A stretch of 64,000 nt of DNA from a virus: IMG/VR virus record IMGVR_UViG_3300042691_027609. One strand, 5' to 3'. The translations under genes were made by a program, and so were the position numbers. Every line of letters begins with the position of its first letter. The first letter of the stretch is position 1. The notes beneath the pieces were generated by a model. The model did no database searches and was not told the origin of the DNA. It saw nothing but the letters and a program-made list of their open reading frames with translations. Below, piece by piece: positions 20,565-64,000 of this stretch.

Positions 20565-21386
20565 ATGAAAGATTTCAACTTAAAAAAATTTCTATTAGAA
20601 AATCCTCTTACAAAAAATAAGAAGCCCGTTAACGAAGCGTTTGAAGGATTTGGTGGTGTTAAAGGCGTTGCTCCGATTCAAGAAGCTCCAGTTCAACCAA
20701 AAGACTTTAAAACAAACACCGACCCTTGGGGTTGGGATGATCATGTAAAAAGCGTGAAAGACGATGAAGAAAATCGCGCAAACAAATGGATCATGAACAT
20801 CGATAGATATCCAAATCCATATAAAGATTGGAGTATAAGTTGGGAATACCCAGGAATAATTGTTTGGGCGCATCCTGATATTCATGACGCTATCGTTGCC
20901 GCCACACCAGGATGGGATGGTAAAGGCACGCCGATAGAATTTCAATCTGAAAAAGGATCAACTCAGATGTTGAAAGTCCTAGATCAAGACGAATTTCCTT
21001 CTTTTAGTGCATATGTAAAAGCTGTAGCTCCGTATCTTGATATGGTAGAAGATGCTAATTTAAATCCCACCGGTGATAATTACGATGATGCTGGTGTAAC
21101 TCCAGGCGCGCAGCGTATGCCATCTGATAAGGATTTTCAAGGCATTCACGAAGATGATGGAGTAAATGAAACTATGACGGCTGATAAAGGTTGGCAATAC
21201 GATGATGACGATTTTCCTGAAGCGGGATATTCTAATATGGATAGAATGAAAGGGCTTGTTAATCAAAACCATTTAAAAATGTTTGTAACAGGCGCGAGAG
21301 GAATCATGGGAGATTTGTTAGACGACGGATTTGAACCAGACGACGTATACGAATTTTTGATGGACACTTTAAAAAACGTAGATTAG
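20565..21386 (+). CDS. Putative virion-internal protein with FNLxxFLxEN leader
   Basis: MKDFNLKKFLLEN; internal VNE/IQE/IHE sites; late motif upstream. Confidence 0.7.
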   Translation: MKDFNLKKFLLENPLTKNKKPVNEAFEGFGGVKGVAPIQEAPVQPKDFKTNTDPWGWDDHVKSVKDDEENRANKWIMNIDRYPNPYKDWSISWEYPGIIVWAHPDIHDAIVAATPGWDGKGTPIEFQSEKGSTQMLKVLDQDEFPSFSAYVKAVAPYLDMVEDANLNPTGDNYDDAGVTPGAQRMPSDKDFQGIHEDDGVNETMTADKGWQYDDDDFPEAGYSNMDRMKGLVNQNHLKMFVTGARGIMGDLLDDGFEPDDVYEFLMDTLKNVD

Positions 21387-21409
21387 TTAATTTACACATA
21401 AAATTTATT

Positions 21410-21432
21410 AAGCCCCTTTTTGGGGCTTTTTT
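21410..21432 (+). terminator. Rho-independent terminator
   Basis: AAGCCCC-ttttt-GGGGCTT plus T run. Confidence 0.8.
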
Positions 21433-21460
21433 ATTATATTTAATAAAATAAATAAAGGTT

Positions 21461-22216
21461 ATGAGACTAGAAACTTCTCCGTACAACACTCGACAGGAGC
21501 AATATCGTGATGATCCGTGGAAGATGCTTATGATTTGTTTTATGCTTAACCAAACAAGTCACAAACAAGTCGACCAGATACGCGATGCTTTCTTTAATAG
21601 GTTTCCCAATGCAGAATCTTTGACTGCAGCCAGTGAATCAGAAATAGCAGAGATGATACGTCCTTTAGGCTTCTATAATAGAAGAGCAAAAGCATGGAAA
21701 CTTTTTAGTGAGCAATGGATAGCAGCAGTCGATAAATTCGGTGGTACAGATATATCACCCGAAGAATTATCTAAAATGAGAGGCGTAGGTAAATATGCAC
21801 TAGATTCTTGGAAAGTTTTTCAACTTTACGATTACGATATTGAAGTAGACGATCATGTTTTGAATTGGTATGTTGATTGGGCTAGAGTAGAAAAAGAGAG
21901 ACTAATTCGAGAGAGTTTGCCTTGGAAGCCTATGAGTGTATATTATTTGCATTTCGAAGACGACAGAGAGGTGTTTCCTAATTGGAAAAATTGTAAAGAT
22001 CATGTTTGTTGTGTTATGGCTCGAACTCAAAAAGAAGCAATAGAAGTTACCAAATCTATTGCCTTAGATCAAGATTATGCAATGCACATTAAAATACTCG
22101 GAATTGGATATTGTAAAGAGGAGTGGACAGATTGCGAACAACCCATGACGACAGATGAGCAACACATGAGAGCACAATTAGATGCGATGTGGGAAAGAAT
22201 GAAATCGAGATCTTAG
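21461..22216 (+). CDS. HhH-GPD DNA glycosylase (MBD4/EndoIII-like) with extra C-terminal domain
   Basis: DPWKMLMICFMLNQT, IRPLGFYNRRA, HhH MRGVGKYALDS, DDHVL. Confidence 0.85.
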   Translation: MRLETSPYNTRQEQYRDDPWKMLMICFMLNQTSHKQVDQIRDAFFNRFPNAESLTAASESEIAEMIRPLGFYNRRAKAWKLFSEQWIAAVDKFGGTDISPEELSKMRGVGKYALDSWKVFQLYDYDIEVDDHVLNWYVDWARVEKERLIRESLPWKPMSVYYLHFEDDREVFPNWKNCKDHVCCVMARTQKEAIEVTKSIALDQDYAMHIKILGIGYCKEEWTDCEQPMTTDEQHMRAQLDAMWERMKSRS

Positions 22217-22268
22217 AATATTTATTTATATAGGTTTATTTAATAGTTTATAAAAAACAAAAAACGTT

Positions 22269-24445: not shown

Positions 24446-24456
24446 TATTTATAAAC

Positions 24457-25077
24457 GTGAAATTACTAAATATCCTTAAAGAAATAGGAGATGCTTCTGC
24501 GAAACCATTTGTATGGAGTTCAAAAGGCGATATCTCTGTGTTGGCAAATCAATTCGCATCAGTTATTGATAGTGCAAAAAAAGGCATGAATATGGTCGGG
24601 CCTTCTATTTTTGGATATACTATGCAAAGCGATAGTGCTACCTATGATATAAGTATAGAAGCAATGGGACGTAGAAGATTATTACTTCAATTACCAGGAA
24701 AGCCAAAACGAAAACAAGTTGGTCCATCATATGAAATGGAAATTTGGATTAGTTTTACAGTCGATAATAGTGATGAAGACACAAATCTAAACGAACAATA
24801 TAGAGTAATGGCAACGGTTATTGCATGTATTCAAGACTTCGTTAGAAAAGTTAGTGATGTATTTTTTATCAAAGAAATTAATATTCTCCCAAAATCAGAT
24901 ACAAGTTCAGACGCTCAATTCGACTCTCATCGAGGTCGTTTATATTTGGCGTATGTAAAAAGAAATATAGATAAACTTCCAGGAAAATGGACAGCTTATG
25001 CTGATGAAGATGGAATATCTATAAAGAACGGATCTTGGGAAGGAGGAAACATTGTCGCTAAATCAACAAATCAGTAA
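24457..25077 (+). CDS. Putative virion-internal protein (KLxxILxE leader), possible degenerate GNAT-like fold
   Basis: MKLLNILKEI; late motif 4 nt upstream; RVMATV...RGRLY. Confidence 0.7.
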   Translation: MKLLNILKEIGDASAKPFVWSSKGDISVLANQFASVIDSAKKGMNMVGPSIFGYTMQSDSATYDISIEAMGRRRLLLQLPGKPKRKQVGPSYEMEIWISFTVDNSDEDTNLNEQYRVMATVIACIQDFVRKVSDVFFIKEINILPKSDTSSDAQFDSHRGRLYLAYVKRNIDKLPGKWTAYADEDGISIKNGSWEGGNIVAKSTNQ

Positions 25078-25088
25078 TATTTATAGGT

Positions 25089-25646
25089 ATGAAATTAATG
25101 TCTATACTATTAGAAGCAGAATCCGAGCAAAAGGTTGATTCTGTAGTTTCTCAGTTAAAATCTCAAATGGGTGATCTCATAGGAGATATGAAAGACGAAT
25201 TAGAAGACAAAGCGAATCAACAAAAAGAGGGCGTAGCAACGTATTTAGGAGTTGCGCTCGCAATTCCTCCAATATTGGGGCTTATTGCGAAATTCGGTAA
25301 ATTTGCTTCAGGCATTATTAAAAAAGCATTAGGAAAAAAGCCTGACGATCAGACAGGTGCCGAAAGATATTTTCAACAAATGGGTAGAATCGCTGATGAA
25401 TTACATCACATATACATAAAACCGCTTGAGTTAGCTATTAGACCGTTCGTAAAAGAAGAGGCGAAAGCCAAAAAAGTAGCCAATTTTATATACCACGTAA
25501 TTATAGCATACATGTTTATAAATGCAGGCATAACGGCTGTTAAAGCAATCCAAGCAAAGAATGTGTCTTTGGCTACATTAGAAACTGCGTTAGCTAGCAT
25601 TAAAGGCGGAGAAGTGAAATCGTATATTTCCAAACTACTAGCATAA
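25089..25646 (+). CDS. Putative virion-internal helical protein with hydrophobic segments
   Basis: MKLMSILLEA leader; two amphipathic/hydrophobic helices. Confidence 0.7.
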   Translation: MKLMSILLEAESEQKVDSVVSQLKSQMGDLIGDMKDELEDKANQQKEGVATYLGVALAIPPILGLIAKFGKFASGIIKKALGKKPDDQTGAERYFQQMGRIADELHHIYIKPLELAIRPFVKEEAKAKKVANFIYHVIIAYMFINAGITAVKAIQAKNVSLATLETALASIKGGEVKSYISKLLA

Positions 25647-25668
25647 TTGATATATTTATAAAAAAACT

Positions 25669-26631
25669 TTGATGAAAAAGAACAAATTATTTTTAAAAAC
25701 ACTGATTGAAAGTCTACTAAAAGAAGACGTAGCTACACAAGATATTAAAAAGGGCGAAGAGATAACTCCTGAAAAAGTTAAAAAAACTGGAGGAGATAAA
25801 GGAGAGGGTGGAGGAAACTACGATGACAAGCTTAAAAAGATATTTAAGCAAAACTATCCTGGATTCGTTGCTGCTCTCGGGAAATTTGCTGGAGATCCAA
25901 AATTCCAAAACTTCGTAAAGAGCAACGCTGCTACAAAATCAGCAGTTAAATTGACTTCTATACCAGTAACTAAATTGATACCTACTCAAAACGAAATAGA
26001 CGTTGATAAGAGTTTGAAGTTTCCGTTAACCAAAAAAGAATCTGCAGGAGCATCTTTAAAAGGCGGAGCAGTAAAAGTACAATCTCCAATCATAACATTT
26101 AACGGAAAATATATTATTGACGGTCACCATAGATGGTCACAAGTATATGCTATAAACAAAGATGCGAGCATAGTATCTTTTGATTTTACTAACGCTGAAA
26201 TTAAAAATCCGTTAGATGCGTTAAAGCTGACTCAGTTGGCTATTGTTGGAGCAGGAGCTTCAAAGATACCATCGGAAAGCGTAAAAGGCAACAACTTATT
26301 GACTATGGCCGAAGCTGATTTGAAAGCTTACGTTGAAAAAACTTTGACAGACGATGTACTTGAGTTGTTTAAAAAAGTTAAAAAGCTTGAGACAAAAGCC
26401 GATGTAGCAAGTTATATTTGGACAAATGTTCAGTCTATGCAAAAAACATCTCAACCTGTATCAGGTGCACCAAAAAGAGATATTATGCCTCAGGCAGGAG
26501 AAGTTCCAGGTGGACAAAACGCAACTATTGATGCACTAAAAAAAGGTTTACCAGCACTAAAAGAAAGAAATAAAACAGATCTAAACGAAGTAAGAAAGCT
26601 TCAAAAGATAGCAGGATTGCGCAGAAGATAA
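25669..26631 (+). CDS. ParB/Srx-like domain protein with leader
   Basis: LIPTQNEID...YIIDGHHRW; N-terminal LIESLLKED; C-terminal LNEVRKLQKIAGL. Confidence 0.75.
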   Translation: MMKKNKLFLKTLIESLLKEDVATQDIKKGEEITPEKVKKTGGDKGEGGGNYDDKLKKIFKQNYPGFVAALGKFAGDPKFQNFVKSNAATKSAVKLTSIPVTKLIPTQNEIDVDKSLKFPLTKKESAGASLKGGAVKVQSPIITFNGKYIIDGHHRWSQVYAINKDASIVSFDFTNAEIKNPLDALKLTQLAIVGAGASKIPSESVKGNNLLTMAEADLKAYVEKTLTDDVLELFKKVKKLETKADVASYIWTNVQSMQKTSQPVSGAPKRDIMPQAGEVPGGQNATIDALKKGLPALKERNKTDLNEVRKLQKIAGLRRR

Positions 26632-26665
26632 TAATAAAATAGAGGAAACTTCACCATTGAATATG

Positions 26666-26692
26666 GGGAGCTCATGGTAGCTCCCTTTTTTT
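26666..26692 (+). terminator. Rho-independent terminator at convergence point
   Basis: GGGAGCT-catggt-AGCTCCC plus T7. Confidence 0.85.
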
Positions 26693-26779
26693 ATGCCTAA
26701 TATTGTCTATCGATAAGCTTTTTGGACTAACCCAATGTGATCCCATAAGCTGTGGAAATGACGGGCAATTGATTGGTTA

Positions 26780-27253
26780 TCAATCAGTTATAACAGATTG
26801 GTTTTCAATAGGTTGTATAGCGTCCCTTTTGAACCATTTGCCTTGGATATTCTCATTGTACGAATCTGTCTCAAGCACTCGAAGCAGCATTTGCCACTTG
26901 ACTTCGCAATACGATAAGTGTTTTTTTGTGTAGCAAAATTCAAGAATTTCACGAGTAAAACTTGGAGGACCAAAGTGTTTGAGATCTACTAATAACGGTT
27001 TACAACTACCGTAGTATTTTGCCCAATCGCTTTCTTTGGTTTCTTTCTTTTTTGCGGGAATTTTACCTGGTTTATTCCAAGCCTCTTTCTCTTTGATTGT
27101 GAGTTTCTTTGTGAGAGTGTTGTGTAGGATTTTCTTACCTACGTAGATGCGATCGTTTTCTAAGTTTGTGATTTTGTAAACAAATCCAACGCATCCTTTG
27201 GGGAATTGATCAAGAGTCAAAAACTCTTGAGATCCGTGTAACCAATTTGTCAT
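26780..27253 (-). CDS. GIY-YIG family nuclease
   Basis: GFVYKITNLENDRIYVGKK; YYGS; FTREILE; SYNENI. Confidence 0.8.
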   Translation of the reverse strand: MTNWLHGSQEFLTLDQFPKGCVGFVYKITNLENDRIYVGKKILHNTLTKKLTIKEKEAWNKPGKIPAKKKETKESDWAKYYGSCKPLLVDLKHFGPPSFTREILEFCYTKKHLSYCEVKWQMLLRVLETDSYNENIQGKWFKRDAIQPIENQSVITD

Positions 27254-27271
27254 AGCCTTTTATTATAAATA

Positions 27272-27694
27272 TCAAGCCTTTTTGTTGGCCACTCTTTCCA
27301 TATCTCCAAATCCGTCTTCTCCATCTTGAAAATCAAATCCAAATTTTTTGTAGAATTGAACCAGTTGGTTGTAGTTTAGTTTGTTTGGATCTTTACCATA
27401 AGGATTTGGATCTAATGCGAGAGTTACGTTGTATTTGTCTGCTATTTTACAAACCATGTTCATGACTCGAGTTGCGTTACCGAGACCCTTTTCTAAAGAA
27501 TGCAAACCGCTTATCCAAAGACGCTTGTCCCAATTTGCAACTTCTATCATCACGTTATTGTTTATAAGCGTTTCTTGAGGTCTAAGTGGATTTCTAACGC
27601 CCAATCTTTTTATAGCAGCGATAGCTTTATCAATGAGCACAGGATCGCTTGGAGTGTACTCTTTTATTAGGTCTTTTAATTTTATTTTTGACAT
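27272..27694 (-). CDS. GNAT-fold acetyltransferase with leader
   Basis: KGLGNAT motif A; LVQFYKKFGF; MSKIKLKDLIKE. Confidence 0.75.
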   Translation of the reverse strand: MSKIKLKDLIKEYTPSDPVLIDKAIAAIKRLGVRNPLRPQETLINNNVMIEVANWDKRLWISGLHSLEKGLGNATRVMNMVCKIADKYNVTLALDPNPYGKDPNKLNYNQLVQFYKKFGFDFQDGEDGFGDMERVANKKA

Positions 27695-27695
27695 A

Positions 27696-39129: not shown

Positions 39130-39600
39130 TTACATTACTCCGTTGTTAATCATTTTTTTCATTAAATTAGAATAATCTGGAACTTCGTTGATTTGTACTG
39201 CTTCTAGATTTGAACTTTGTCTCGCTGTAGATAACATGCCATTCACATCACCAACTGATGCTTCTTTTGGTTGGAAAAAAGAAACAGGATTGACATCATC
39301 AGATGTGAAATTGATTGATGCATCTTCGTTATCAATCATATTCATAGCTGTTTCGTTAAGCAAGTCATTCAATGGAGAATTACCGTAGAATGTTGATTGA
39401 ATATTAGACTGAATTCTTTTTTGGTAAGTTTCAGGCGTATTTAACGATAGTGGAATTTGGGATTTTTTTGTCTCTTTTATCACATTTTTAATTCCAGTTT
39501 CTTTATTTATATTTTCTGATAGAAGACGAGGCAATTCTTGCCTTAGGGCTTTTACCACCTCTTCTTTAATTATCTGTCTAAGTATATCTAATTTTGCCAT
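39130..39600 (-). CDS. Late protein with leader-like N-terminus
   Basis: MAKLDILRQIIKEEV; LLSE and LLNE sites; late motif 5 nt upstream. Confidence 0.7.
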   Translation of the reverse strand: MAKLDILRQIIKEEVVKALRQELPRLLSENINKETGIKNVIKETKKSQIPLSLNTPETYQKRIQSNIQSTFYGNSPLNDLLNETAMNMIDNEDASINFTSDDVNPVSFFQPKEASVGDVNGMLSTARQSSNLEAVQINEVPDYSNLMKKMINNGVM

Positions 39601-47695: not shown

Positions 47696-48499
47696 ATGAT
47701 ATCGCTAAAATCTCTATTCTTAGAAGAAAAAAATAACAAACCACTAGCTATTTTTATGGCAGGTTCTGCTGGAGCAGGTAAAACATCTTTTAGAAAAGAG
47801 TATATTGACACTATTGGAGATTTTATTGTACTAAATATAGACGATATCTATGAACCTCTTTTACAAAAGTCAGATTTGCCATTGGATTTTAGAAAGTATA
47901 CATCACCAGAACAACTATCAGCAGCGGCTAAAGCAATGGGATCTGCGCAAAAAATGCACAAACAAAGATATGAAAAATCGAAAACAGATTTAAAAGATAT
48001 AATTATTGATGGTACTGGTGCATCTAAAAGAGAGGTGGCAAAGAAAAAACAGGAGCTAGAGTCTTTAGGTTATAAGACTATGATGGTTCTTGTATTTGTT
48101 ACGCCTGATATATCTCTAAGCAGGAATATTAGAAGAGGCGAAGAAGGAGGCAGAACATTAATGCCATCAATAATACTAAGAAGTTGGTCATCTTTATTTG
48201 ATAATATAAAAGATTATGAGAATTTGTTTGGAAAAAATCTTATAGTCTATAAAGCTTACGATGAGACGGATGTAGAGTTCCCAAACTTCGATCCATCAAA
48301 TCCAGAAATAAAAAGAAAATTTTTCGATCCATTTAAAGTACGAGGCAAAGAAAAAACGCCTGAAGAAAAAGCTGAGTCTTTGGCGAAAATAAAAGCTATG
48401 AACGATAAGATATTATCGCAAATTAAAAATATAAACCAATTAAGTTTCGATGATCCACAAACAATAGTAAAAAAGCTAAATAATTTTGTTAATGCGTGA
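47696..48499 (+). CDS. P-loop kinase (zeta/AAA_33-like) with leader
   Basis: MAGSAGAGKT, NIDD, IIDGTG, SLSRNIRR; MISLKSLFLEE. Confidence 0.8.
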   Translation: MISLKSLFLEEKNNKPLAIFMAGSAGAGKTSFRKEYIDTIGDFIVLNIDDIYEPLLQKSDLPLDFRKYTSPEQLSAAAKAMGSAQKMHKQRYEKSKTDLKDIIIDGTGASKREVAKKKQELESLGYKTMMVLVFVTPDISLSRNIRRGEEGGRTLMPSIILRSWSSLFDNIKDYENLFGKNLIVYKAYDETDVEFPNFDPSNPEIKRKFFDPFKVRGKEKTPEEKAESLAKIKAMNDKILSQIKNINQLSFDDPQTIVKKLNNFVNA

Positions 48500-49082
48500 T
48501 TATTCACTAATAGGAAAAGAGATCATTGAGGATATACTAAAAGAAGTTAACGAATTAACAGGACCTTGTTTTTATCCCGGAAAATTTAAACCTCCTCATA
48601 AAGGTCATTTTGAAGCCGCTAAATATTTGGCAAATCAACCAAATGTTAATATGGTATATGTTATAATAAGTAACGTATCTAAATTTGGAATAACATCAAA
48701 AGACAGTTTAAAAATATGGCAAGATTATTTATTGTCTGAACCAAATAGTAAAATACGCGTTAAAGAATCAACAGAAGGCACACCAATAAAAGATATATTT
48801 AGGTACATAGAACAGAATCCTGAAGTAAAAACGATATACGTTGGAGCTGCAAAAGAAGAGGCTGAAAATCTTGGATACTTTTCAAAACTTAAAGAAAAAT
48901 ACCCAGAAAAAGTAAAGCAAATAGTTATACCAGATCAATTTGACAGAATAAGCGCAACGCAAATGCGACAAGCTCTAAAAAACGGAGATTTTGAAGCATT
49001 CGCAAAATTTTTACCGGATTCAGCTTATAATAAGGGCATAACTAAAAAAGTTTTTGGTTTACTAACCAAGATAATAAAATGA
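48486..49082 (+). CDS. HxGH nucleotidyltransferase (cytidylyltransferase/NMNAT-like)
   Basis: PGKFKPPHKGH and ISATQMR motifs; EDILKEV leader. Confidence 0.85.
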   Translation: MLMRDYSLIGKEIIEDILKEVNELTGPCFYPGKFKPPHKGHFEAAKYLANQPNVNMVYVIISNVSKFGITSKDSLKIWQDYLLSEPNSKIRVKESTEGTPIKDIFRYIEQNPEVKTIYVGAAKEEAENLGYFSKLKEKYPEKVKQIVIPDQFDRISATQMRQALKNGDFEAFAKFLPDSAYNKGITKKVFGLLTKIIK

Positions 49083-53298: not shown

Positions 53299-53607
53299 AT
53301 GAAACTAGCTAATATGAAACTTAAAAATTTATTTGAATTAGTAGGAACTAAAATCATAACTAAACAAACCTCAATAGATCCAAATACAGGAAAAATATCA
53401 TGGGATGTTGAGTATGAACCTGATTTTACTGATGTATTAAACAGTTTTAATACACTAATTGAAGATTTAGATAATACAATAAAAAAACACGGAATTAGAG
53501 ACGCATCAATAATAACTTCATTGAAAGCACTAAGAGCGACAAAATCTGCCCTACTAAAAACATTGCAATCCAAGTATCCAGAATACATAAAAGATTACAA
53601 AAACTAA
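53299..53607 (+). CDS. Putative virion-internal protein with leader
   Basis: MKLKNLFE. Confidence 0.65.
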   Translation: MKLANMKLKNLFELVGTKIITKQTSIDPNTGKISWDVEYEPDFTDVLNSFNTLIEDLDNTIKKHGIRDASIITSLKALRATKSALLKTLQSKYPEYIKDYKN

Positions 53608-53625: not shown

Positions 53626-53886
53626 ATGAGGCCGTATAACGACCTAGAAGTTACAGAAGACTATGTCATAAGAGAGTTTGATCAAAACATTGATCCCATT
53701 GAGTTAATGTGGCATAGAGATCAAGAAGATAGAGTAGTTCAATCCATCACTTCAACAGACTGGCAATTACAATTAGACAATAGTTTACCTATTTCTTTAA
53801 ATAATTCGATATTTATACCAAAGCATTTATGGCATCGAGTAATAAAAGGAAGCAATACACTGAAAATAAAGATAGCAAAACTCTAG
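53626..53886 (+). CDS. Cupin-fold protein
   Basis: WHRD...W.LQLD...IFIPKHLWHRVIKG. Confidence 0.75.
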   Translation: MRPYNDLEVTEDYVIREFDQNIDPIELMWHRDQEDRVVQSITSTDWQLQLDNSLPISLNNSIFIPKHLWHRVIKGSNTLKIKIAKL

Positions 53887-54143
53887 ATTTTCAACTAGTT
53901 TCTCTATTAATCGAAGCAGAAAGAACAAAAGGCGGTGTAAAGGTCAAAGCTGCATATCTAACAAAAGATAAATCAGCGATGAAAAAAGAAATAGATAGAG
54001 TTAAAAAATTGAAGTCAGACGATCCATCTGCATACAATAAATGGGATGCTGATTACGCTGACAAAGATAAAACAAAAAAATACAAAACAAAAAAATCGGC
54101 CGCTACTACAGCATACGAAAAAAGATTTGGTAAGAAAAAATGA
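53829..54143 (+). CDS. Basic late protein
   Basis: Late motif at 53809 within the upstream gene; SLLIEAE. Confidence 0.65.
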   Translation: MASSNKRKQYTENKDSKTLDFQLVSLLIEAERTKGGVKVKAAYLTKDKSAMKKEIDRVKKLKSDDPSAYNKWDADYADKDKTKKYKTKKSAATTAYEKRFGKKK

Positions 54144-54421
54144 TAAGTCTACTTAGATTACTTTTAGAGTACGATGACAATGTAGAAAAAGCATTGTCAA
54201 ATAAAGCTAAAGCCACAAAAATATCTAAGACTATACTTAAACAAGTATATGAAAAGGGACTTAGTGCGTGGAAAGGAGGACATAGACCTGGAGTTAGTCA
54301 ACACCAATGGGCTATGGGAAGAGTAAATTCGTTCGTTACTGGAAAAGGTGGATCAAGAAAAGTTGATAAGGAATTATGGAAAAAAGCAAGAAAAAGTAAA
54401 CAGAAAAAATCAAAAAAATGA
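54140..54421 (+). CDS. DUF5824-like basic protein with leader
   Basis: ILKQVYEKGLSAWKGGHRPGVSQHQWAMGRVNSF; MISLLRLLLE. Confidence 0.75.
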   Translation: MISLLRLLLEYDDNVEKALSNKAKATKISKTILKQVYEKGLSAWKGGHRPGVSQHQWAMGRVNSFVTGKGGSRKVDKELWKKARKSKQKKSKK

Positions 54422-54903
54422 TAAAGTTAAAAAATCTATTAAACGAAGTATCATATGATAAATCGGGTTTAGAAAAACCTCATTTAGCAGATAGAAATAA
54501 AGATAAAAAAATCTCTTCTTGGGAAAAAAAGGTGGCTTCAAAAATCGAAAAAAATGTCGATGAGGGAGCTCCTCAAGACGAGTACATGATTGGCACGAAA
54601 AAGTATTCAGTGGGCAGACCCCAACAATATCCAGAAATGTGTCAAGAGTGTGGAACAAAAATGTATGAAGGCGCATGTATGGAGTGCGATTACATGGATC
54701 AATCGTCAGAAATGTCGTCAGATCATGAAGTTGGAATGGCGCAAAATCTACTACAAGATATTATTCGAAACGCACAAGAGTTAATGCAAAAAATAGGAAA
54801 TCAAGAAATAAACCTTCCAGGTTGGATACAAGATCACATATCACAAGCTCAAAACTATATTGATCAAGCCAATGTTGGATATCATACTTTAGGAGAAGAT
54901 TAA
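54418..54903 (+). CDS. Modular late protein (leader, CxxC-CxxC finger, helical domain)
   Basis: MIKLKNLLNE; CQEC...CMEC; DHEVGMA...LPGWIQ. Confidence 0.75.
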   Translation: MIKLKNLLNEVSYDKSGLEKPHLADRNKDKKISSWEKKVASKIEKNVDEGAPQDEYMIGTKKYSVGRPQQYPEMCQECGTKMYEGACMECDYMDQSSEMSSDHEVGMAQNLLQDIIRNAQELMQKIGNQEINLPGWIQDHISQAQNYIDQANVGYHTLGED

Positions 54904-54916: not shown

Positions 54917-56542
54917 ATGCAAATAGACAAATTATTAGAACAACTGCTAATTATCGAAGACGATAAACTTCGTATGGAAAAACCGCCAAAAACTTTTGAG
55001 GATGATCCTATGAATTTTATTTTGAATAAGTATCAGAATCTAAATGAGATTTTGACAGAATTATTGACTGATAATTTTCAAGAATACATCACTGGTATTT
55101 ACATAATCGCACCAAAACCTACTACGTTTAAAATAGTTTTGCATAACGGGCAATACTTCTTTTTAACATATACACAAGAAGCGTATCAAGCAACAATAGC
55201 AGGAAAAAATTATTTCTTAATGACGGTTGGAGAAAAACAAAGAGCGATGTTAGCGATCTCTAGATTGTTAAGATGGGGAAGTCCACTTAAGACAAAAGGT
55301 CCTGAAGGAGCTGAACAAGGTGCAGAGGCTACAGATGCAACAGAAACACCCGCAGAAACTCCGCCAGCAGAAGGAGGAGAAAGTGGAGGCGAAGAAGAAA
55401 CTTTAGCTGAATCGAAAAATATAATAAAAAACCTTTTAGAGGTAGAAGTCAGCGGACAAGAAGCTGAAGTATTGGGCGTTGAATTATGGAACGCGTCGGT
55501 AAACTACAAAAAAGTACCACCAAAATACTCAAAATACGAAAAAGTATTTGACGAGTTACAAAAAATATCATCTAAATACAAAGTAGAAATACAACAGTAT
55601 TCTGGACAAAGAATATCAACAACTGATTTTTGGCAACAAGAAACAGGAAAATCAAAAGACGAACCAAAAACAGATCTAATATCAGTCGATAAAAAGAAAT
55701 TGAGACTTTCAGCAAAAAAAGGTCCTGCTCAAATAATGAGCGGAATAAAAGAAGAATCTAAAGCCACAATCCTTGCAGCCGCTAGGTCTGTTGGACTAGA
55801 TTCAGAAATCAAAAGTAGACTAATGAAAGAGATTGGTAGGTTGGCTGATACTACAAAAACTGAAAAATTAAATACTGGCGAATTAAGAAAAACTGATATT
55901 AAAAATTTAAAATCTAAAGTAAATATACAAGCAAAAAAAGTTTTAAATTCTGCTATTAAAGCTAACGCAGCTTTACAAAAAGATTTAGACGATCTATTCG
56001 TTAAAAATAAAGAATTTAAAAAAGCGTTTGTGTATGAAGCTATGACAGGAACTCAAAAATTTGGCAAAGGATCTCCAGCTGAAGCAAACTACGTAATCGC
56101 ATTTAGTAATGATTTTAATCACGTTAAATTTGAAGACGTATCAAAAATGAGTTCTCCTGTAATCGATAAGATTTCTGATAAAACAAAACTCTCAGTTAGT
56201 TTTAAGTCTACATCGTATAAAATAAAAGGCGAAAAAGCTGGATACAATTTCTTCTCAGTAATAAGACTTGGTCTTGAAGATTTAGTGGAAAAGCAAGACA
56301 AGCTAAACGAAGCAATGAAAAACGCAAATTTGAGTGAAAACGTTGTCATCGACAAAATAAAACAATTTTTGGCTTATTTACAAGATAAGTTTAATAAAGT
56401 GATAGATTATATATCAGAAAGTGTAAAAAAGCTTACTGAGCTTATCCAACAAGGAATTGAAAAAGCTTTAGAATTTCTTGGTATAGAAATACGAACATCT
56501 ATCGATTACACAGGACCAGAAGATTTTTATAGCATAATATAA
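54917..56542 (+). CDS. Two-domain late protein; C-terminal PD-(D/E)XK-like nuclease domain
   Basis: Acidic linker, then KNLLEVE, then E...PKTDL...RLSAKK. Confidence 0.6.
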   Translation: MQIDKLLEQLLIIEDDKLRMEKPPKTFEDDPMNFILNKYQNLNEILTELLTDNFQEYITGIYIIAPKPTTFKIVLHNGQYFFLTYTQEAYQATIAGKNYFLMTVGEKQRAMLAISRLLRWGSPLKTKGPEGAEQGAEATDATETPAETPPAEGGESGGEEETLAESKNIIKNLLEVEVSGQEAEVLGVELWNASVNYKKVPPKYSKYEKVFDELQKISSKYKVEIQQYSGQRISTTDFWQQETGKSKDEPKTDLISVDKKKLRLSAKKGPAQIMSGIKEESKATILAAARSVGLDSEIKSRLMKEIGRLADTTKTEKLNTGELRKTDIKNLKSKVNIQAKKVLNSAIKANAALQKDLDDLFVKNKEFKKAFVYEAMTGTQKFGKGSPAEANYVIAFSNDFNHVKFEDVSKMSSPVIDKISDKTKLSVSFKSTSYKIKGEKAGYNFFSVIRLGLEDLVEKQDKLNEAMKNANLSENVVIDKIKQFLAYLQDKFNKVIDYISESVKKLTELIQQGIEKALEFLGIEIRTSIDYTGPEDFYSII

Positions 56543-56550: not shown

Positions 56551-56907
56551 ATGTCATTTAATTTACAAAAATATCTCATAGAAAATAATTTGACCCTAAC
56601 AGGTAAAATAAGACTTCGTGAAGAGGAAGAAGATGCAGAAACTGAACCTTCAAAAGAAGACATGAAATCGACAGAAAAGGATATGAGAGATCTCGATAAA
56701 AATAAAAACCAACTTAAAAATTTACAAGCAAAAGTAAAAGACATAATCTTCAAGTTTACTAAAGATACACCTCAGGGTAAAGTCTTGATAGATGTAACAG
56801 CATATAAAAAAGCAATTGGAGATTTACCTAAAAAAATAAAAGATCTCAAAAAGAAAATTGACGCGGTAGAAAATCCACAAGCAGATGATTCAGAAGATCA
56901 AGACTAA
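56551..56907 (+). CDS. Putative virion-internal protein with FNLxxYLxEN leader
   Basis: MSFNLQKYLIENNL. Confidence 0.7.
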   Translation: MSFNLQKYLIENNLTLTGKIRLREEEEDAETEPSKEDMKSTEKDMRDLDKNKNQLKNLQAKVKDIIFKFTKDTPQGKVLIDVTAYKKAIGDLPKKIKDLKKKIDAVENPQADDSEDQD

Positions 56908-57652: not shown

Positions 57653-57682
57653 AAAACAAAACCTCTTCCCTACCATAAAAAT

Positions 57683-57709
57683 AGCTCAACGTAACAGTTG
57701 GGCTTTTTT
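57683..57709 (+). terminator. Rho-independent terminator
   Basis: AGCTCAAC-gtaaca-GTTGGGCT plus T run. Confidence 0.8.
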
Positions 57710-57723
57710 GTATATTTATATAC

Positions 57724-59322
57724 ATGAGTGAGCAACAAAATATAAAAGAAAAAATAAAGGAAGAGTTTGTAAAATGTGCTCAAGATCCTGTTTACTTCAT
57801 GAAGAAGTATTACATGATTCAACATCCGCAAAGAGGTCGACAATTGTTCGATCTTTATCCATTTCAGGAAAAAGTTTTACGTCTATTCCAAAAGTATCCC
57901 GACTCAATTATTAATAAATCTAGACAGTTGGGTATATCGACACTTGTTTCTGCATATTCTTTGTGGTTGATGATATTCAATAAGGATAAAAACGTTCTTG
58001 TAATAGCTACCAAACAAGATACCGCAAAAAATATGGTAACTAAAGTAAGATTTGCTTACGATAACCTACCAGTCTGGCTTAGAATAGGAGCTACTGCAAT
58101 TGAAAACAATAGGTTAAGCTTAAGATTGACAAATGGATCTCAGATTAAAGCCGTATCAGCTGCAGGTGACTCTGGTCGTTCTGAAGCTGTGTCGCTGCTT
58201 GTAATCGATGAGGCTGCGTTTATTGACAACATTGAAACTATATACACTGCGGCTAAAATGACTCTTGCTACCGGTGGTGGGTGCATTGCGCTTTCTACTC
58301 CAAATGGTATGGGTAATTGGTTCCATAAGACTTATACAACTGCTCAAAAGCAAGAGAATAATTTTATACCCATATCTTTACCGTGGACCGTCCATCCAGA
58401 AAGAGATCAAGCTTGGAGAGACGAACAAGACGTAGATTTAGGTAAAAGAAACGCTGCACAAGAATGCGATTGCGACTTCTTAAGCTCAGGTAATACAGTT
58501 ATCGAACCAGATATACTTACTTGGTACGAACAAAATATGATATGCGAACCAATTGAGAAAAGAGGTGTTGATAAATCTTATTGGATATGGGAATATCCTG
58601 ATCCTATGAAATATTATGCGGTGATCGCTGACGTTGCTCGAGGTGACGGATCAGATTATTCTGCTTTTCACGTAATAGATATAGATACTATGGCGCAAGT
58701 TGCAGAGTATCAATCTCAGTTGGGAACAAGAGAATACGCAAATGTTTTAATTTCTGCTGCCACCGAATACAATCAAGCGTTACTTGTCGTAGAAAATAAT
58801 AATATTGGATGGGACGTTGTTCAATCGATAGTAGAAAGTGGATACACTAATATGTATTATAGCTTAAGAACAGAGGGAAATTCGGATTTTGTTACATATA
58901 TAAACAAATACGAAAGATCAGATGGACTAGTCCCAGGATTTTCGATGAATCAAAGAACTAGACCACTTGCGATTGAAAGAATGAGAGATTCTATTGAGAA
59001 TAAAGTTGCGATAATAAAATCGCGTAGATTGTTAGAAGAGCTTAGAGTTTTTATTTGGAAAAATAATAAGCAACAAGCAATGAACGGATATAATGACGAT
59101 TTAACATTGTCTTTCGCAATGGGAATGTACTTGAGAGAAACATCTCTTAGGTATAGAAAGACAGCTGAAAGTTTGACATATAGTGCATTAAACAACTATT
59201 CAAGAACGACTAGTGAAATGCCTCTATACAACGCAAACAGTAACATAAATCAAAATCCGTGGGGAATGAACGTAAACAATGCCCAAGGTCAACAATTTGA
59301 AGATCTTAGGTGGCTAATATAA
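57724..59322 (+). CDS. terL: Terminase large subunit (T4 gp17-like)
   Basis: LYPFQ, KSRQLGIS (Walker A), LVIDEAAF (Walker B), STPNG, ADVARGDGSDYS, NDDL. Confidence 0.95.
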   Translation: MSEQQNIKEKIKEEFVKCAQDPVYFMKKYYMIQHPQRGRQLFDLYPFQEKVLRLFQKYPDSIINKSRQLGISTLVSAYSLWLMIFNKDKNVLVIATKQDTAKNMVTKVRFAYDNLPVWLRIGATAIENNRLSLRLTNGSQIKAVSAAGDSGRSEAVSLLVIDEAAFIDNIETIYTAAKMTLATGGGCIALSTPNGMGNWFHKTYTTAQKQENNFIPISLPWTVHPERDQAWRDEQDVDLGKRNAAQECDCDFLSSGNTVIEPDILTWYEQNMICEPIEKRGVDKSYWIWEYPDPMKYYAVIADVARGDGSDYSAFHVIDIDTMAQVAEYQSQLGTREYANVLISAATEYNQALLVVENNNIGWDVVQSIVESGYTNMYYSLRTEGNSDFVTYINKYERSDGLVPGFSMNQRTRPLAIERMRDSIENKVAIIKSRRLLEELRVFIWKNNKQQAMNGYNDDLTLSFAMGMYLRETSLRYRKTAESLTYSALNNYSRTTSEMPLYNANSNINQNPWGMNVNNAQGQQFEDLRWLI

Positions 59323-59331
59323 ATTTAAAAA

Positions 59332-61242
59332 ATGGCAGATCAACAACAACAAAAACAGAATAACTTATTTTCTACATTAAGAAGACTTTTTTCTACCGAC
59401 GTTATTATAAGAAATAATGGAGACGGTGCTCTTAAAGTAGTCGACGTAGATAGAATTCAAAACAATGGTGTTATTCAAACAAACGCTCTTGTAGATAGAT
59501 TTCATAAAATTTATACGACTTCTACCGCGTATGGAGTTAATCTTAACTTAGCACAAAACTACCAATCAGCCAGGATTCAAATTTATGCTGATTATGACGC
59601 TATGGATACAGATGCGATAGTATCTTCGGCTTTAGATATTATAGCTGACGAATGTACGCTTAAAAACGAACAGGGAGAAGTATTACAGATCAGATCTTCT
59701 GATGAAGCAATACAGAAAATACTTTACAACTTATTTTATTCTGTTCTAAATATAGAATTTACTCTTTGGTCATGGATTAGAAATATGTGTAAGTATGGAG
59801 ATTTCTATCTTAAGATGGAGATAGCCGATAAATATGGAGTGTACAATGTGATACCATTTTCTGCTTACAATATAATTAGACAAGAGGGATTCAACCCTAA
59901 CAATCCAAACGAAGTTAGATTCAAATACGATCCACTTGGAGCTCTAGGAACAACCTCAGGATTTAGCTCTGCTTACAACAACGAAGATCCAGGAATCTAT
60001 TTTGATAATTACGAAATGGCTCATTTTAGATTAACTGGAGATGTTAACTATTTACCGTACGGAAGATCTTATCTAGAACCAGGCAGAAAGTTATTTAAGC
60101 AGTACACTCTTATAGAAGATGCGATGCTGATCCATCGTATCACTCGTGCCCCAGAGAGAAGAACATTTTATGTGAATGTAGGAGCAATACCTCCAAACGA
60201 AGTAGAAAATTACATGCAGAGAATGATCAATAAGATGAAAAAAACTCCTCTTATAGATCCTAATACAGGTCAGTACAATCTAAAATACAACCAACAAAAT
60301 CTACTCGAAGATTTCTTTATCCCAGTCCGTGGCAACGATACTACAACAAAGATAGACACTGCAAAAGGTTTGGAATATAATGCTATTGAAGACGTACAGT
60401 ATTTTAGAGAGAAGCTTTTCGCAGCTCTAAAAATACCAAAAGCTTTCATGGGATACGAAAAGGATTTGACTGGTAAAGCCACATTAGCTGCAGAAGATAT
60501 TCGTTTTGCAAGAACAATAGAAAGAATACAGAGAATTATAGTTTCCGAATTAACTAAAGTTGCGCTAGTTCATTTATATGCTCATGGATATACAAACGAA
60601 TCAGCAGCTAATTTTACTCTCTCATTAACGAACCCTTCGATTATTTACGAACAAGAAAGAATCGCACTCTTCAAAGAAAAAGTTGCATTAGCGAAAGACG
60701 CTATGGAAGCAAACTTATTACCTAAAGATTTTATCTACGATAAGATATTCCAATTCTCTGAAGATCAATATGCTGAATTAGAAGATATGATCATTGAAGA
60801 TAAGAAAAAAGGGTTTAGAATAAAACAGATCGAAGAAGAAGGTAACGATCCAGCTGAAACAGGCCAAGTGTTTGGTACGCCTCATCAATTAGCTAGTTTG
60901 TACGGAGGAAAAGGGGATTCACCCGTGGACATTCCAACAGGCTATGATGAAACCGTAGAAAAAGGACCAGGAAGACCTAAAAAATACCAATCAAAAATTG
61001 GCACCGATGCGTCAGCTTTTGGAAGAGATCCTCTTGGTAAAAACGATATGAAATCAGCAACAGATCAAGGAGAAAATGATAAACTAAAGGTTCAATATAA
61101 AGGCGGACCTCTAGCTTACGAAGGCGCAATGGGAGAATATATAAAAAATAAACAAATGCTCGATCAGTTTGGAAGATCAACTAAAATGTACAATCAACCA
61201 AATCTTTTAAGTGAAGACAATATAAAAACTGATCTAGATTAA
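59332..61242 (+). CDS. Portal protein (T4 gp20-like)
   Basis: EDAMLIHRITRAPERRTFYVNVG, EDFFIPVRG, DVQYFREKLFAALKIP. Confidence 0.95.
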   Translation: MADQQQQKQNNLFSTLRRLFSTDVIIRNNGDGALKVVDVDRIQNNGVIQTNALVDRFHKIYTTSTAYGVNLNLAQNYQSARIQIYADYDAMDTDAIVSSALDIIADECTLKNEQGEVLQIRSSDEAIQKILYNLFYSVLNIEFTLWSWIRNMCKYGDFYLKMEIADKYGVYNVIPFSAYNIIRQEGFNPNNPNEVRFKYDPLGALGTTSGFSSAYNNEDPGIYFDNYEMAHFRLTGDVNYLPYGRSYLEPGRKLFKQYTLIEDAMLIHRITRAPERRTFYVNVGAIPPNEVENYMQRMINKMKKTPLIDPNTGQYNLKYNQQNLLEDFFIPVRGNDTTTKIDTAKGLEYNAIEDVQYFREKLFAALKIPKAFMGYEKDLTGKATLAAEDIRFARTIERIQRIIVSELTKVALVHLYAHGYTNESAANFTLSLTNPSIIYEQERIALFKEKVALAKDAMEANLLPKDFIYDKIFQFSEDQYAELEDMIIEDKKKGFRIKQIEEEGNDPAETGQVFGTPHQLASLYGGKGDSPVDIPTGYDETVEKGPGRPKKYQSKIGTDASAFGRDPLGKNDMKSATDQGENDKLKVQYKGGPLAYEGAMGEYIKNKQMLDQFGRSTKMYNQPNLLSEDNIKTDLD

Positions 61243-61278
61243 ATAACACTATATTTATAAATAGTATAAAATCTATTC

Positions 61279-62136
61279 ATGGCAGTCAAACATTCTAAAT
61301 ACAGAAATACGGGAGTTCTATTTGAGCTCTTAGTAAGACAAACTACATCAGACTTATTAAATAACAAAGACTCAAAAGCCGTAAAAATACTAAAAAAGTA
61401 TTTTAATAACACTGAATTGGGTAGAGAGTATGGTTTATATAACACTCTTGCAACGAGTAAAAAACTTAGCGAAGCTAAAGCTGAAATACTAATATCTACG
61501 TTAATAGAGCAGTTTAGAAAACTAGATATCGAAAAGATAAATAAGTTAAAATATAATTTAATAAAAGAAATTAAATTAAATTACGATATAGAAGATTTCT
61601 TTAAAGCCAAAATAGATAATTACAAAAATTACGCTTGTTTATATACTATATTTGAATCTCAGTATCATAAATTTATCGATACAAAACAAGTGTTACTCAA
61701 TAAAATAAATTTGTTAGAGTCGCTTAGCGATCAAAGCATAGTAGACAAAAAAGCTCCTCAATCTATAATGGAAGATTTCATGAGAGAGGACAAAGAAGTT
61801 AGATTGTTAGCATACAAAATTCTTGTTGATAAATTCAACGAGAGATACGAAACTCTTAGCGAAACACAAAAAACGATACTGAATAAATACGTTAGTAGCA
61901 TATCAGATACTAAGTCATTGGTGTCTTATCTAAACGAAAAAATCGAAGACGTAAAAACCAAATTAACTAAACTATCAAAATCTACCACTGATAAAGTGAT
62001 GAGAATAAAGTTACAAGAGGTAGTAAAGTTAATAAAGCCGTTGGAAGAAAACAAATCAATAAAAGACGAATCTGTTATTGGCATATTGCAATGTTACGAT
62101 TTAATAGATGAAATCAATGAACAAAAAGATAAATAA
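61279..62136 (+). CDS. Probable prohead core/scaffold-related protein
   Basis: Helical; directly after portal; late motif upstream; LSE/LLE sites. Confidence 0.55.
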   Translation: MAVKHSKYRNTGVLFELLVRQTTSDLLNNKDSKAVKILKKYFNNTELGREYGLYNTLATSKKLSEAKAEILISTLIEQFRKLDIEKINKLKYNLIKEIKLNYDIEDFFKAKIDNYKNYACLYTIFESQYHKFIDTKQVLLNKINLLESLSDQSIVDKKAPQSIMEDFMREDKEVRLLAYKILVDKFNERYETLSETQKTILNKYVSSISDTKSLVSYLNEKIEDVKTKLTKLSKSTTDKVMRIKLQEVVKLIKPLEENKSIKDESVIGILQCYDLIDEINEQKDK

Positions 62137-63697
62137 AGAGTTCGATATGCACTCAGCAAATCGTAATCTGAGAGCACCCGAAATAACTTTTTCTATAACA
62201 AATCCAAGATTGGACGACATATTTAATATGGAATTTGGTCCGACAGATTATATAGAAAAAGAAGGCGATATATACTATACGTTAACTCCAAATGAATTTG
62301 ATAGGTTCTTAGATTTTGCAATGTCTTCCGGATTTGATGTAGATAGATATGTAAACCAAATAGAAGATTTATCAGAAGAAGGATCAGTTACCGGTGGAGA
62401 AGCTTTTTTGCCATCATTACACGCTAAAAAGAAAAGCACTGTAAAAGAGGGGGAATATCCGTACAGAATAGAAGTCGCAGTAAGCGACGCTCATAAAGCT
62501 TTAGATATAGTTCGATCTGATAGAATGTTTAGTAATAATGTTAGAATATACTCTTCAAATTTTTTCTTATCAGATGATCCAAGCATTATTTCTGAATTGT
62601 TTGATGAATTTGAAAAACAAGGCGTTCAAATGATATCGTATGAAGTGCCTAGTGAAGCATCAGATTTTTACGAAAGCATACTATCAGGATATAAAGAAGT
62701 ACCAGGATTCAGACCTGGTCACACTCCAGACAAAGGCGGGTTTCAGTATAAAGATCTTTGGGGTATGAATGAATCTTATACTCCATCAAAAACCAATGCA
62801 GAAGAATTAGCTCGCGTAGAAGCATTATTATCTCAAGCTCATGTAGATAAAGCATACTCAGTAATGAGTTCTTATGAATTTAGAATTAAAATGCTTAGAT
62901 TACTAGTCGGACTAGAGAAAAAATATGGTATTGCACTACCATTTTTAAAATTTGGTTTGATGGTAGGTGATTATCTTGCTAAATATTTTCCAGGATTCAA
63001 AGGGAAATTTGGTCCATACGCTCAAAATTGGAAATCAGTAAAAGATCATATTGAACAGAATATTCAACAACAAAGTATGAATGAGGACGCATGTTGGTCA
63101 GGATACCAAATGGTTGGTATGAAAGACAAAGGCGGAAGACAAGTTCCCAATTGCGTGCCTGTTAACGAAGAAGAATTAGAAGAGGCGTATATTCCTTCAA
63201 ATATTGAAGAATTCGCTAAAAGAAAAGGTATAATGCCTATAGTTAAACAAGTCTCACGTTGGGCAGAAAAAGCGGGCAAACGTATTGTTGGTGGAACAGC
63301 GATTGGTAAAAATTATAGTACGTTAATCTTAGACTTAACTTACCAAGGCGGAGAAATAAGAATCAACACCGACACAGATGAGATAGAAGTTAAAGGCGAG
63401 GAAGTTTATGACTATAACAGTTTTGTTACTGCGTTAGGTACGTTAAATGAAAACTACGCTCGTTTTAGAAACGAAACCAAAACAAGATCAGGTTCAGAAC
63501 AGTATCATCAAGCTGTGAAGTTAGTGAAGAAAAAAGTACAAGAAATTTCTAAGCTACATAGTTACATGGAGAGAATGCAACAAGAGCTCAGCGAAACTCA
63601 AGACGGACTTAAAAAGAAAAAATACACACAAATGGCTATTGACAAAATCAAAGCTGAAGTAAAAGAACTAAATAATAAAATCAAAAAACTAAAATAA
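62108..63697 (+). CDS. Modular polyprotein-like late protein
   Basis: Short blocks separated by LSE, VKE, FYE, MNE, MNE, VNE, LEE, LNE sites. Confidence 0.7.
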   Translation: MKSMNKKINKEFDMHSANRNLRAPEITFSITNPRLDDIFNMEFGPTDYIEKEGDIYYTLTPNEFDRFLDFAMSSGFDVDRYVNQIEDLSEEGSVTGGEAFLPSLHAKKKSTVKEGEYPYRIEVAVSDAHKALDIVRSDRMFSNNVRIYSSNFFLSDDPSIISELFDEFEKQGVQMISYEVPSEASDFYESILSGYKEVPGFRPGHTPDKGGFQYKDLWGMNESYTPSKTNAEELARVEALLSQAHVDKAYSVMSSYEFRIKMLRLLVGLEKKYGIALPFLKFGLMVGDYLAKYFPGFKGKFGPYAQNWKSVKDHIEQNIQQQSMNEDACWSGYQMVGMKDKGGRQVPNCVPVNEEELEEAYIPSNIEEFAKRKGIMPIVKQVSRWAEKAGKRIVGGTAIGKNYSTLILDLTYQGGEIRINTDTDEIEVKGEEVYDYNSFVTALGTLNENYARFRNETKTRSGSEQYHQAVKLVKKKVQEISKLHSYMERMQQELSETQDGLKKKKYTQMAIDKIKAEVKELNNKIKKLK

Positions 63698-64000
63698 TGG
63701 ACAATTTTAACATCAAACAGTATTTGTTTGAAAACAATTTAGGACCATTTACCAAACCAGATGGTATTAGCGCTGATCAAGTCATTGATGTCGATGCGAC
63801 TTTAAGAACTATTCAGTCTGCAGTAAGATCTGGAGCGGTAGTAATGGTTGGAGACAAGAAAATTTTTAAGATGCCATTCATAAATTTGGCAACCTTTGAA
63901 GGCGGTGGCAAAGTACAGTTTCCAAGACAAGCTGAGCCTTTAGAAGATATGTTAGCAACTGAAATAACGATTGACGGAAAAACGATCAGTCCAATATATA
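63697..64000 (+). CDS. Partial ORF with FNIxxYLxEN leader (runs off window)
   Basis: MDNFNIKQYLFENNL...; TAATG coupling. Confidence 0.75.
   Translation, partial: MDNFNIKQYLFENNLGPFTKPDGISADQVIDVDATLRTIQSAVRSGAVVMVGDKKIFKMPFINLATFEGGGKVQFPRQAEPLEDMLATEITIDGKTISPIY

Follow-up and report, generated by a model that had tools for sequence, protein, structure and literature searches.

Why should proteins with unrelated folds, encoded by one and the same phage, begin with the same short peptide? The question is raised by a 64,000-nucleotide stretch of viral DNA (IMG/VR record IMGVR_UViG_3300042691_027609), called the window below. A sequence-only reading had picked out 15 leader peptides at the N-termini of its proteins and had interpreted them as the address tag of a system that loads late proteins into the phage head. 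All 15 peptides were found at the starts of the genes concerned, and the interpretation as a whole is partly supported. The leaders are likely to be capsid-targeting and cleavage leaders of the type known from phage T4, to judge from the statistics of the peptide and the analogy with T4. The late proteins that carry them are probably packed in the virion, as their sequences suggest, and by analogy the delivery of enzymes into the host is plausible.

A short leader repeated at protein N-termini

Judged by its genes, the phage is an uncultured, distant relative of T4 from among the aquatic T4-like phages that infect Bacteroidota. The nearest isolate is Flavobacterium phage vB_FspM_immuto (immuto), with a portal identity of 55% and an annotation that includes a gp21-like protease and a gp23 capsid protein. 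Megablast of the window's head genes against the phage collection gave no match, and relatives surfaced only in a protein-level search. The related contigs used here are the best 80 of hundreds in IMG/VR, and the leader statistics cover the window and 81 related loci with 1140 called genes.

A loose pattern (hydrophobic, two residues of any kind, two hydrophobic, any, Glu) was scored in the first 22 residues and compared with protein interiors. Without anchoring, its frequency at N-termini is 8 times that in the interiors, both for the window (11 genes) and, independently, for the 81 related loci. The sequence-only reading had raised the possibility that the motif is as common in shuffled N-termini, and it is not: the form of 9-10 residues anchored at Met1 begins 63 of the 1140 genes, against a mean of 4.0 and a maximum of 8 in 200 shuffles, and internal Met sites fit it in just 8 of 5708 cases. 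A form of 11-12 residues was observed 33 times (3.9 after shuffling), and the longer class B pattern described below 22 times (0 in the shuffles). Among N-termini that show the hydrophobic pattern, 46% end it with Glu, compared with 8.6% internally, and less than 4% with Asp. When N-termini are picked on Met1, a hydrophobic residue 8 and Glu10 only, position 4 is hydrophobic in 82-89% and position 7 in 72-78%, against 23% in the internal control. The consensus leader of the lineage is M-I-K-L-x-D-I-L-K-E. Its copies differ at synonymous codon sites, so the repeat lies in the protein and not in the DNA, and selection acts on the peptide; a DNA-level repeat or mobile promoter cassette was rejected for this reason, and a composition artefact was rejected by the shuffles and the internal controls.

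The leader-bearing genes are confined to one part of the window, which consists of three gene blocks: small plus-strand genes up to ~20.5 kb, a minus-strand block at 26.8-45.1 kb with the baseplate and tail genes, and a final plus-strand block that leads to the large terminase and the portal. To the left of 20.5 kb, the leader is absent from all 35 genes, compared with 10 strong members among the 54 genes to the right (Fisher p = 0.005). The earlier claim was that many leader genes stand right behind a late motif. Such a late-type motif, A-T-A-T-T-T-A-T-A, is present within the 45 nucleotides upstream in 7 of the 15 leader genes, compared with 6 of the 39 others (p = 0.03). The large terminase gene and the one that follows the portal (61279) also have it upstream. 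Going by the promoter-like motif and the gene position, the leader-bearing proteins may be expressed late, alongside the head proteins. It had further been claimed that early genes and baseplate enzymes are free of the leader; this stands for the early genes (0 of 35) and needs a correction for the baseplate, as the minus-strand leader gene that starts at 39600 belongs to the baseplate cluster. In the full genome of immuto, the strict leader is present on 14 of 220 genes, nine of them within 20 kb before the terminase. None of the ~110 early genes between 26 and 78 kb has it, and two isolated leader genes at 24.5-25.4 kb each have their own late motif.

The shorter sequence T-A-T-T-T-A-T-A occurs at 17 sites in window 14781-61263 (e.g., 24446, 25078, 47685, and 57713), 13 on the plus strand and 4 on the minus strand. 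It lies 11-28 nucleotides before the starts of the large terminase gene, the post-portal gene and many leader genes, and reads as T-A-T-A-A-A-T-A, the late promoter of T4, in reverse complement.

Leader classes

Two classes of leader had been distinguished, both described as ending in hydrophobic-x-Glu. This is correct for class A. The Glu inside the class B motif is not a conserved end; in orthologues of the 20565 protein it is mostly Asp and sometimes Asn or Lys. A hydrophobic-x-Glu with Glu at residue 22-25 is present in 24 of 32 distinct class B leaders. Because the motif-internal Glu varies and a later hydrophobic-x-Glu follows, class B is, on its sequence, a longer, bipartite leader. The copy at 63697 has no later hydrophobic-x-Glu within the part visible in the window. 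Class C, seen only in relatives, consists of a basic residue, M/L-Q-K-L-A-G-I, and a hydrophobic-x-Glu end, and was found 21 times against 0 in shuffled sequences.

An N-terminal module of ~45 residues, M-P-Y-K/S...hydrophobic-x-Glu, heads a 210-residue protein at window 50539-51171, with the late motif upstream. In other phages it substitutes for the short leader on the ParB/Srx-like family (proteins P0137-P0186), and it may represent a further leader class.

Leader-bearing genes and their products

In ten strong members the leader starts at residue 1 and fits the lineage consensus: class A of 9-10 residues (24457, 25089, 47696, 54140, and 54418), class A of 12-13 residues (27694 and 39600, both on the minus strand), and class B (20565, 56551, and 63697). 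Five members are weaker (25672 and 48492, both with the motif ending at residue 18; 54917, at residue 14; 53829, at residue 29; and 53299), and for all five the orthologues on related contigs have, at the corresponding position, either a canonical leader or an extension with a conserved hydrophobic-x-Glu. The genes, with two context genes, are as follows.

20565..21386, plus strand: acidic protein of 273 residues with a class B leader; motif at residues 4-15, hydrophobic-x-Glu ending at residue 24
24457..25077, plus strand: 206-residue protein, function not assigned, with a 9-residue class A leader; GTG start; late motif 11 nucleotides upstream
25089..25646, plus strand: basic protein of 185 residues with a 9-residue class A leader; late motif 11 nucleotides upstream
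25672..26631, plus strand: 319-residue protein with an 18-residue leader, a disordered linker and a ParB/Srx-like core; invariant D-G-H-H-R-W motif
27272..27694, minus strand: basic protein of 140 residues with a 12-residue class A leader; the same 12-residue type occurs three times in immuto
39130..39600, minus strand: acidic protein of 156 residues with a 13-residue leader and its own late motif; within the baseplate cluster beside a gp25-like gene
47696..48499, plus strand: zeta-toxin/PNK-like P-loop kinase of 267 residues with a 10-residue class A leader; late motif 11 nucleotides upstream
48492..49082, plus strand: NMNAT/cytidylyltransferase-like nucleotidyltransferase of 196 residues; N-terminal extension of 18-23 residues with hydrophobic-x-Glu sites
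53299..53607, plus strand: 102-residue protein with a weak leader; the orthologue L024_3864 begins with a canonical 9-residue leader
53829..54143, plus strand: basic protein of 104 residues; leader-like motif ending at residue 29; late motif 19 nucleotides upstream
54140..54421, plus strand: basic DUF5824 protein (Pfam) of 93 residues with a 10-residue class A leader
54418..54903, plus strand: acidic protein of 161 residues with a 10-residue class A leader
54917..56542, plus strand: 541-residue protein with a 14-residue leader; orthologues, e.g., L023_5709, have a 13-residue leader ending in L-L-A-E
56551..56907, plus strand: acidic protein of 118 residues with a class B leader; located two genes before the large terminase
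57724..59322, plus strand: large terminase (context gene)
59332..61242, plus strand: T4 gp20-type portal (context gene)
63697..64000, plus strand: acidic protein with a class B leader, of which only the start lies within the window

The class B motif of the 20565 protein is kept in 55 homologues, in which a later I/V-N-E and then A-F-E-G-F-G-G are also conserved; the protein itself has no Pfam or PHROG match. The strict class B pattern is found in 10 of 16 orthologues of the 56551 protein, with near-variants at the start of 4 of the other 6, and the hydrophobic-x-Glu of this protein ends at about residue 24. The 63697 gene occupies the place where relatives have class C leader genes directly before the protease. 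Orthologues of the 25089 protein in two related loci (L029 and L052) have the canonical 10-residue leader, and two orthologues of the 53829 protein (L019_894 and L024_3556) carry the same mature sequence directly behind a canonical leader. In orthologues of the nucleotidyltransferase, the extension with L-I-x-E-E and V-N-E is conserved ahead of the fold, and several have the late motif upstream. The immuto orthologue of the 39130-39600 gene (record position 81525) likewise retains leader and late motif. As the baseplate cluster includes this gene as a conserved member, it is doubtful whether the product is head cargo.

The sequence-only reading had listed GNAT, ParB-like, kinase, nucleotidyltransferase, and nuclease-like enzymes as cargo. 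Kinase and nucleotidyltransferase are confirmed: in the kinase, Pfam Zeta_toxin covers residues 12-179 and the fold matches PezT/zeta and PNK, and the firm assignments are this zeta/PezT- and PNK-like kinase, the NMNAT/cytidylyltransferase-like enzyme and the DUF5824 protein. A ParB/Srx fold for the core of the 25672 protein is weak but consistent as a structural prediction (Foldseek E 0.02-0.06, VIA Z 4-5.4, Atlas 0.86). GNAT and nuclease were dropped, as no such Pfam or PHROGs match was obtained on any leader-bearing protein; a PD-(D/E)XK nuclease (46890), a GIY-YIG endonuclease (26780, minus strand) and an HhH-GPD glycosylase (21461) in the region are leaderless. For the 24457 protein, searches of Pfam, PHROG, and PDB were without match and its Atlas clusters are exclusively viral. 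PDB sequence searches with three carriers that lack an assigned function gave no match. The mature parts of class A proteins are mostly basic (isoelectric point 8-10.5) and those of class B acidic, and several of the small acidic or basic carriers could be core or scaffold components instead of effectors.

The leader as a portable module

The claim that one leader heads unrelated proteins is upheld. When all called proteins were grouped by BLAST on their mature parts (from residue 23 on), 256 clusters were obtained, ~78 of which contain a leader-bearing member, and the folds of the carriers differ (P-loop kinase, HIGH-type nucleotidyltransferase, ParB/Srx-like, and DUF5824). Among 115 metagenomic homologues of the kinase, down to 35% identity, nearly all retain the leader. 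It ends ~12 residues before the P-loop, and L4 and E10 are at least 90% conserved, level with the catalytic residues. In the family of the 25672 protein (722 homologues), one conserved core stands behind at least five leader types: short class A, long, class C, a 7-residue form, and the 45-residue M-P-Y-K module. The junction always lies at hydrophobic-x-Glu followed by an acidic stretch. These sequence comparisons indicate that the leader is a portable module exchanged between families exactly at the hydrophobic-x-Glu joint. In three members of the ParB/Srx family, a signal-peptide-like N-terminus replaces the leader. For the kinase, the ParB/Srx-like protein and the 20565 protein, every homologue that could be detected is on a metagenomic, phage-like contig.

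Structure prediction places the leader apart from the folded domain. In the AlphaFold2 model of the kinase (pLDDT, the predicted local distance difference test, 92.7 overall), it is modeled as a low-confidence helix outside the domain, with an average of 52 over the first ten residues. In that of the 25672 protein (pLDDT 85.8 overall), residues 1-47 are low and the leader helix again lies outside the domain.

A modular protein of 529 residues is encoded at window 62108-63697 on the plus strand, between the portal and the expected protease. It contains a Cys-knuckle module (residues 327-354) flanked by M-N-E and V-N-E. The same module is free-standing in three related loci (L015, L023, and L074), as small class A leader-tagged proteins in which it directly follows the leader Glu.

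Likeness to the capsid-targeting sequence of T4

In T4, a capsid-targeting sequence (CTS) is present on IPI, IPII, and IPIII, which are internal proteins, and short propeptides on gp24, gp22, gp21, and Alt; they are removed by the prohead protease gp21 (Mullaney and Black, 1996, as cited in PMC9026906, PMC5694885, and PMC8442874). The CTS sequence has been reported (PMC8442874), and mutagenesis assigned residues 4 and 7 to targeting and residues 8 and 10 to processing, with Asp10 blocking the cut (PMC9026906). The leader of the window lineage has the residues that matter in T4: it is hydrophobic at positions 4, 7, and 8 and has Glu at about position 10. Both are N-terminal peptides of ~10 residues that precede unrelated mature parts. 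The T4 likeness proposed by the sequence-only reading is thus sustained by the length of the leader, its conserved positions 4, 7, 8, and 10, the terminal Glu, its absence from the early block, and the head genes of the lineage. The two systems differ in that several leader classes are present here, including longer bipartite ones (class B, and class C in relatives), and in that about 10-15 carriers lie within 43 kb, some of them enzyme-sized, and are known from sequence alone.

The lineage has homologs of the T4 portal, capsid, and Peptidase S77 genes. In one related locus (L023), a Peptidase_S77 gene lies 4.4 kb after the portal (Pfam E = 1.4e-23), and its product is 30% identical to T4 gp21 across regions that hold the conserved GELxHP and SSRxxGS motifs. 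Of the 23 related loci that extend 6.5 kb beyond the portal, 22 encode an S77 protease, 2.2-4.4 kb after the portal. The capsid protein of the relatives is of the gp23 type (Gp23). It begins with an 11-residue leader that resembles the 10-residue propeptide of T4 gp24, and it has L-V-V-E ~33 residues before a conserved L-P-L-V-R-K, matching the cut site of T4 gp23. The protease of the relatives begins with L-I-E, like T4 gp21. In the relatives, capsid protein, scaffold and protease thus all bear sites of the cleavage type where the T4 proteins have them. The gp22-type scaffold gene (25626-26867 in locus L001, with a cluster in related loci) carries the annotation "DNA polymerase phi-like" in immuto.

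The size of the cargo set had been described as much larger than the three internal proteins of T4. This is fair as to the count; T-even phages are already known with ten or more polymorphic internal proteins, which are recognized by their leader (PMC12373910; the common leader of the ip genes is credited there to Repoila et al., 1994). As in the window lineage, hypervariable and unrelated genes follow a constant leader, which serves packaging in the T-even phages, and cargo is exchanged behind it. The T-even ip genes encode small, basic inhibitors of type IV restriction, occupy one or two hotspots and belong to close relatives of T4, whereas the carriers described here are scattered in the late regions of a very distant, Bacteroidota-infecting lineage and their functions are mostly unassigned. 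No mature carrier has a PHROG or Pfam internal-protein match when compared with IPI, IPII, and IPIII; the likeness is confined to the leader pattern. A third point of comparison is provided by phiKZ-like giant phages (SPN3US, phiKZ, and 201phi2-1), whose ejection proteins have long N-terminal propeptides (PMC5694885). In those phages, a related prohead protease processes head-internal proteins after Glu, and the propeptides are considered to direct the proteins into the prohead, but these comprise 80-130 residues and end in A/S/G-x-E, compared with 9-25 residues and L/I/V-x-E here.

A precedent in Agrobacterium phage Atu_ph07

A match to the kinase led to the Agrobacterium jumbo phage Atu_ph07, in which gp53 holds a homolog of the 47696 kinase. 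In this genome (NC_042013.1, 39484-50592), 11 consecutive genes, gp53-gp63, start with an 8-residue leader ending in L-x-E. All 11 products are listed in the virion proteome, with up to 31 peptides, and the leaderless neighbors gp45, gp51, gp52, gp66, gp70, and gp71 are not in the virion list (PMC6102473, Table S5). The gp53 protein has a predicted mass of 87 kDa, and its abundance peaked in a gel band low down, which looks like processing (PMC6102473, Table S5). The gp21 homolog of Atu_ph07 is gp204 (PMC6102473), and the paper makes no mention of the gp53-gp63 leader. Atu_ph07 shares with the window lineage a T4-type core, a gp21 homolog, and a short L-x-E leader. It differs in the 8-residue sequence itself and in its carriers, most of which are paralogues and not unrelated families. 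By analogy, it can be regarded as the closest experimental precedent for leader-tagged virion proteins, and as a supportive one.

Interpretation and alternatives

Several observations weigh against reading the leaders as capsid-targeting and cleavage sequences. The likeness to the T4 CTS is one of pattern, with no recognizable sequence homology. The place where this genome's own protease would be expected is just past the window end, and the S77 protease is known from relatives. In the majority of scaffold orthologues, the A-I-A/L-D/E site at the N-terminus has Asp in place of Glu. In T4, Asp at the end position of the CTS permits targeting and blocks cleavage. The carrier at 39130-39600 lies in the baseplate cluster, suggesting that not every protein with the motif may be head cargo. 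Refinement of the regular expressions took place once the data had been seen, and the enrichment was then reproduced on other loci. Finally, the Atu_ph07 leader differs from the one described here, and the evidence from that phage is supportive and not decisive because its virions were purified with polyethylene glycol, so that contamination is possible.

Three other explanations were weighed. The leader might work as in T4 while the tagged proteins serve as accessories of the prohead core or scaffold, either degraded and expelled or retained as DNA-packing proteins, and not as effectors; of the sequence-only reading, just the effector delivery would then be mistaken. Class B carriers are indeed small and acidic, like T4 gp67 and gp68, and adjoin head genes; most class A mature parts are basic, like the DNA-bound internal proteins of T4, and most carriers have no recognizable enzyme domain. 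Against these resemblances, at least two and probably three carriers have enzyme folds (kinase, nucleotidyltransferase, and ParB/Srx-like), and the retained internal proteins of T4, together with Alt, are injected (PMC12373910), which makes a purely structural role unlikely. A tag for a partner other than the prohead core, such as a chaperonin encoded by the phage, a membrane site, or a modifying enzyme, would fit with the GroEL and GroES genes of immuto and with the location of the 39130 gene in the baseplate cluster. The leader, however, ends specifically in Glu and is hydrophobic at the positions critical in T4, the capsid protein and protease of the lineage have the same kind of N-terminus, and no other gene was seen traveling with the leaders; this explanation therefore appears quite improbable.

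The motif might instead be a by-product of AT-rich composition, of constraints on translation in the start regions in a host without Shine-Dalgarno sites, or of common descent of paralogous N-termini. The window has a G+C content of ~33%, K, I, L, N, and E are abundant residues in this genome, M-K or M-I-K is the start of many genes, and no Shine-Dalgarno sequence is found in the window genes. Neither the shuffles (4 against 63 observed) nor the internal Met sites (8 of 5708) reproduce the motif, and its codons vary synonymously. The preference for Glu (46%) over Asp (under 4%), the dozens of unrelated clusters to which the mature parts belong, and the early genes of the same genome, which have no leader, are equally hard to reconcile with a by-product. 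This explanation is largely refuted and retains a very small probability.

For a T4-type capsid-targeting and cleavage leader, the steps of docking, cleavage, retention, and injection that we infer would run as follows. Late in infection, the tagged proteins would be made together with the head proteins, and their amphipathic N-terminal helix, with hydrophobic residues 4, 7, and 8, would dock them to the prohead's scaffolding core during assembly. The prohead protease, of the gp21 type (Peptidase S77), would cut after the Glu at position 9-13, or at residue 17-25 in class B and in class C of the relatives. The freed proteins would remain in the capsid with the DNA, and some would probably be delivered into the next host, like T4 IPI-III and Alt. 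New cargo would be recruited by joining a gene to the leader exactly at the cleavage site. A more far-reaching version can be put forward tentatively, as a possibility that we would not yet favor: a plug-in cargo system, with at least three interchangeable leader classes and recombination at the protease site, by which dozens of families, including kinase, nucleotidyltransferase, and ParB/Srx-like proteins, are loaded and injected as a takeover or anti-defence kit.

The concept as such is not new. Reviews have already suggested the CTS as a general protein-loading device of T4-like phages. In the literature, we found no paper describing this leader or the cargo of the lineage, none on Mel-JY01, and, among the immuto papers listed, none on virion proteins. 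If the leader works as in T4, the proteins shipped in the capsid by a large group of uncultured aquatic phages could be read from sequence alone. A long cargo list that includes enzymes would then suggest that, well beyond the T-even phages, the delivery of proteins is a major and variable component of the conflict between phage and host, and the leader would provide a second natural tag, different in sequence, for loading foreign proteins into T4-type heads. The question of which residues of a short peptide specify entry into the prohead becomes testable on the isolate immuto.

Other features of the window

A G+C island is present at window 8000-12000 (0.46, compared with about 0.33-0.36 elsewhere). 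No standard tRNA was found by ARAGORN across the window. At 14893-20465, four consecutive genes encode proteins of 461, 332, 760, and 221 residues whose N-termini resemble signal peptides or those of lipoproteins, and the last gene of the block encodes a YkuD L,D-transpeptidase domain; a phage does not usually have exported proteins grouped in this way. At 26780-27253 on the minus strand, a gene for a SegE-like GIY-YIG homing endonuclease (Pfam E = 8e-29), with the late motif upstream, sits where the plus-strand block switches to the minus-strand block.

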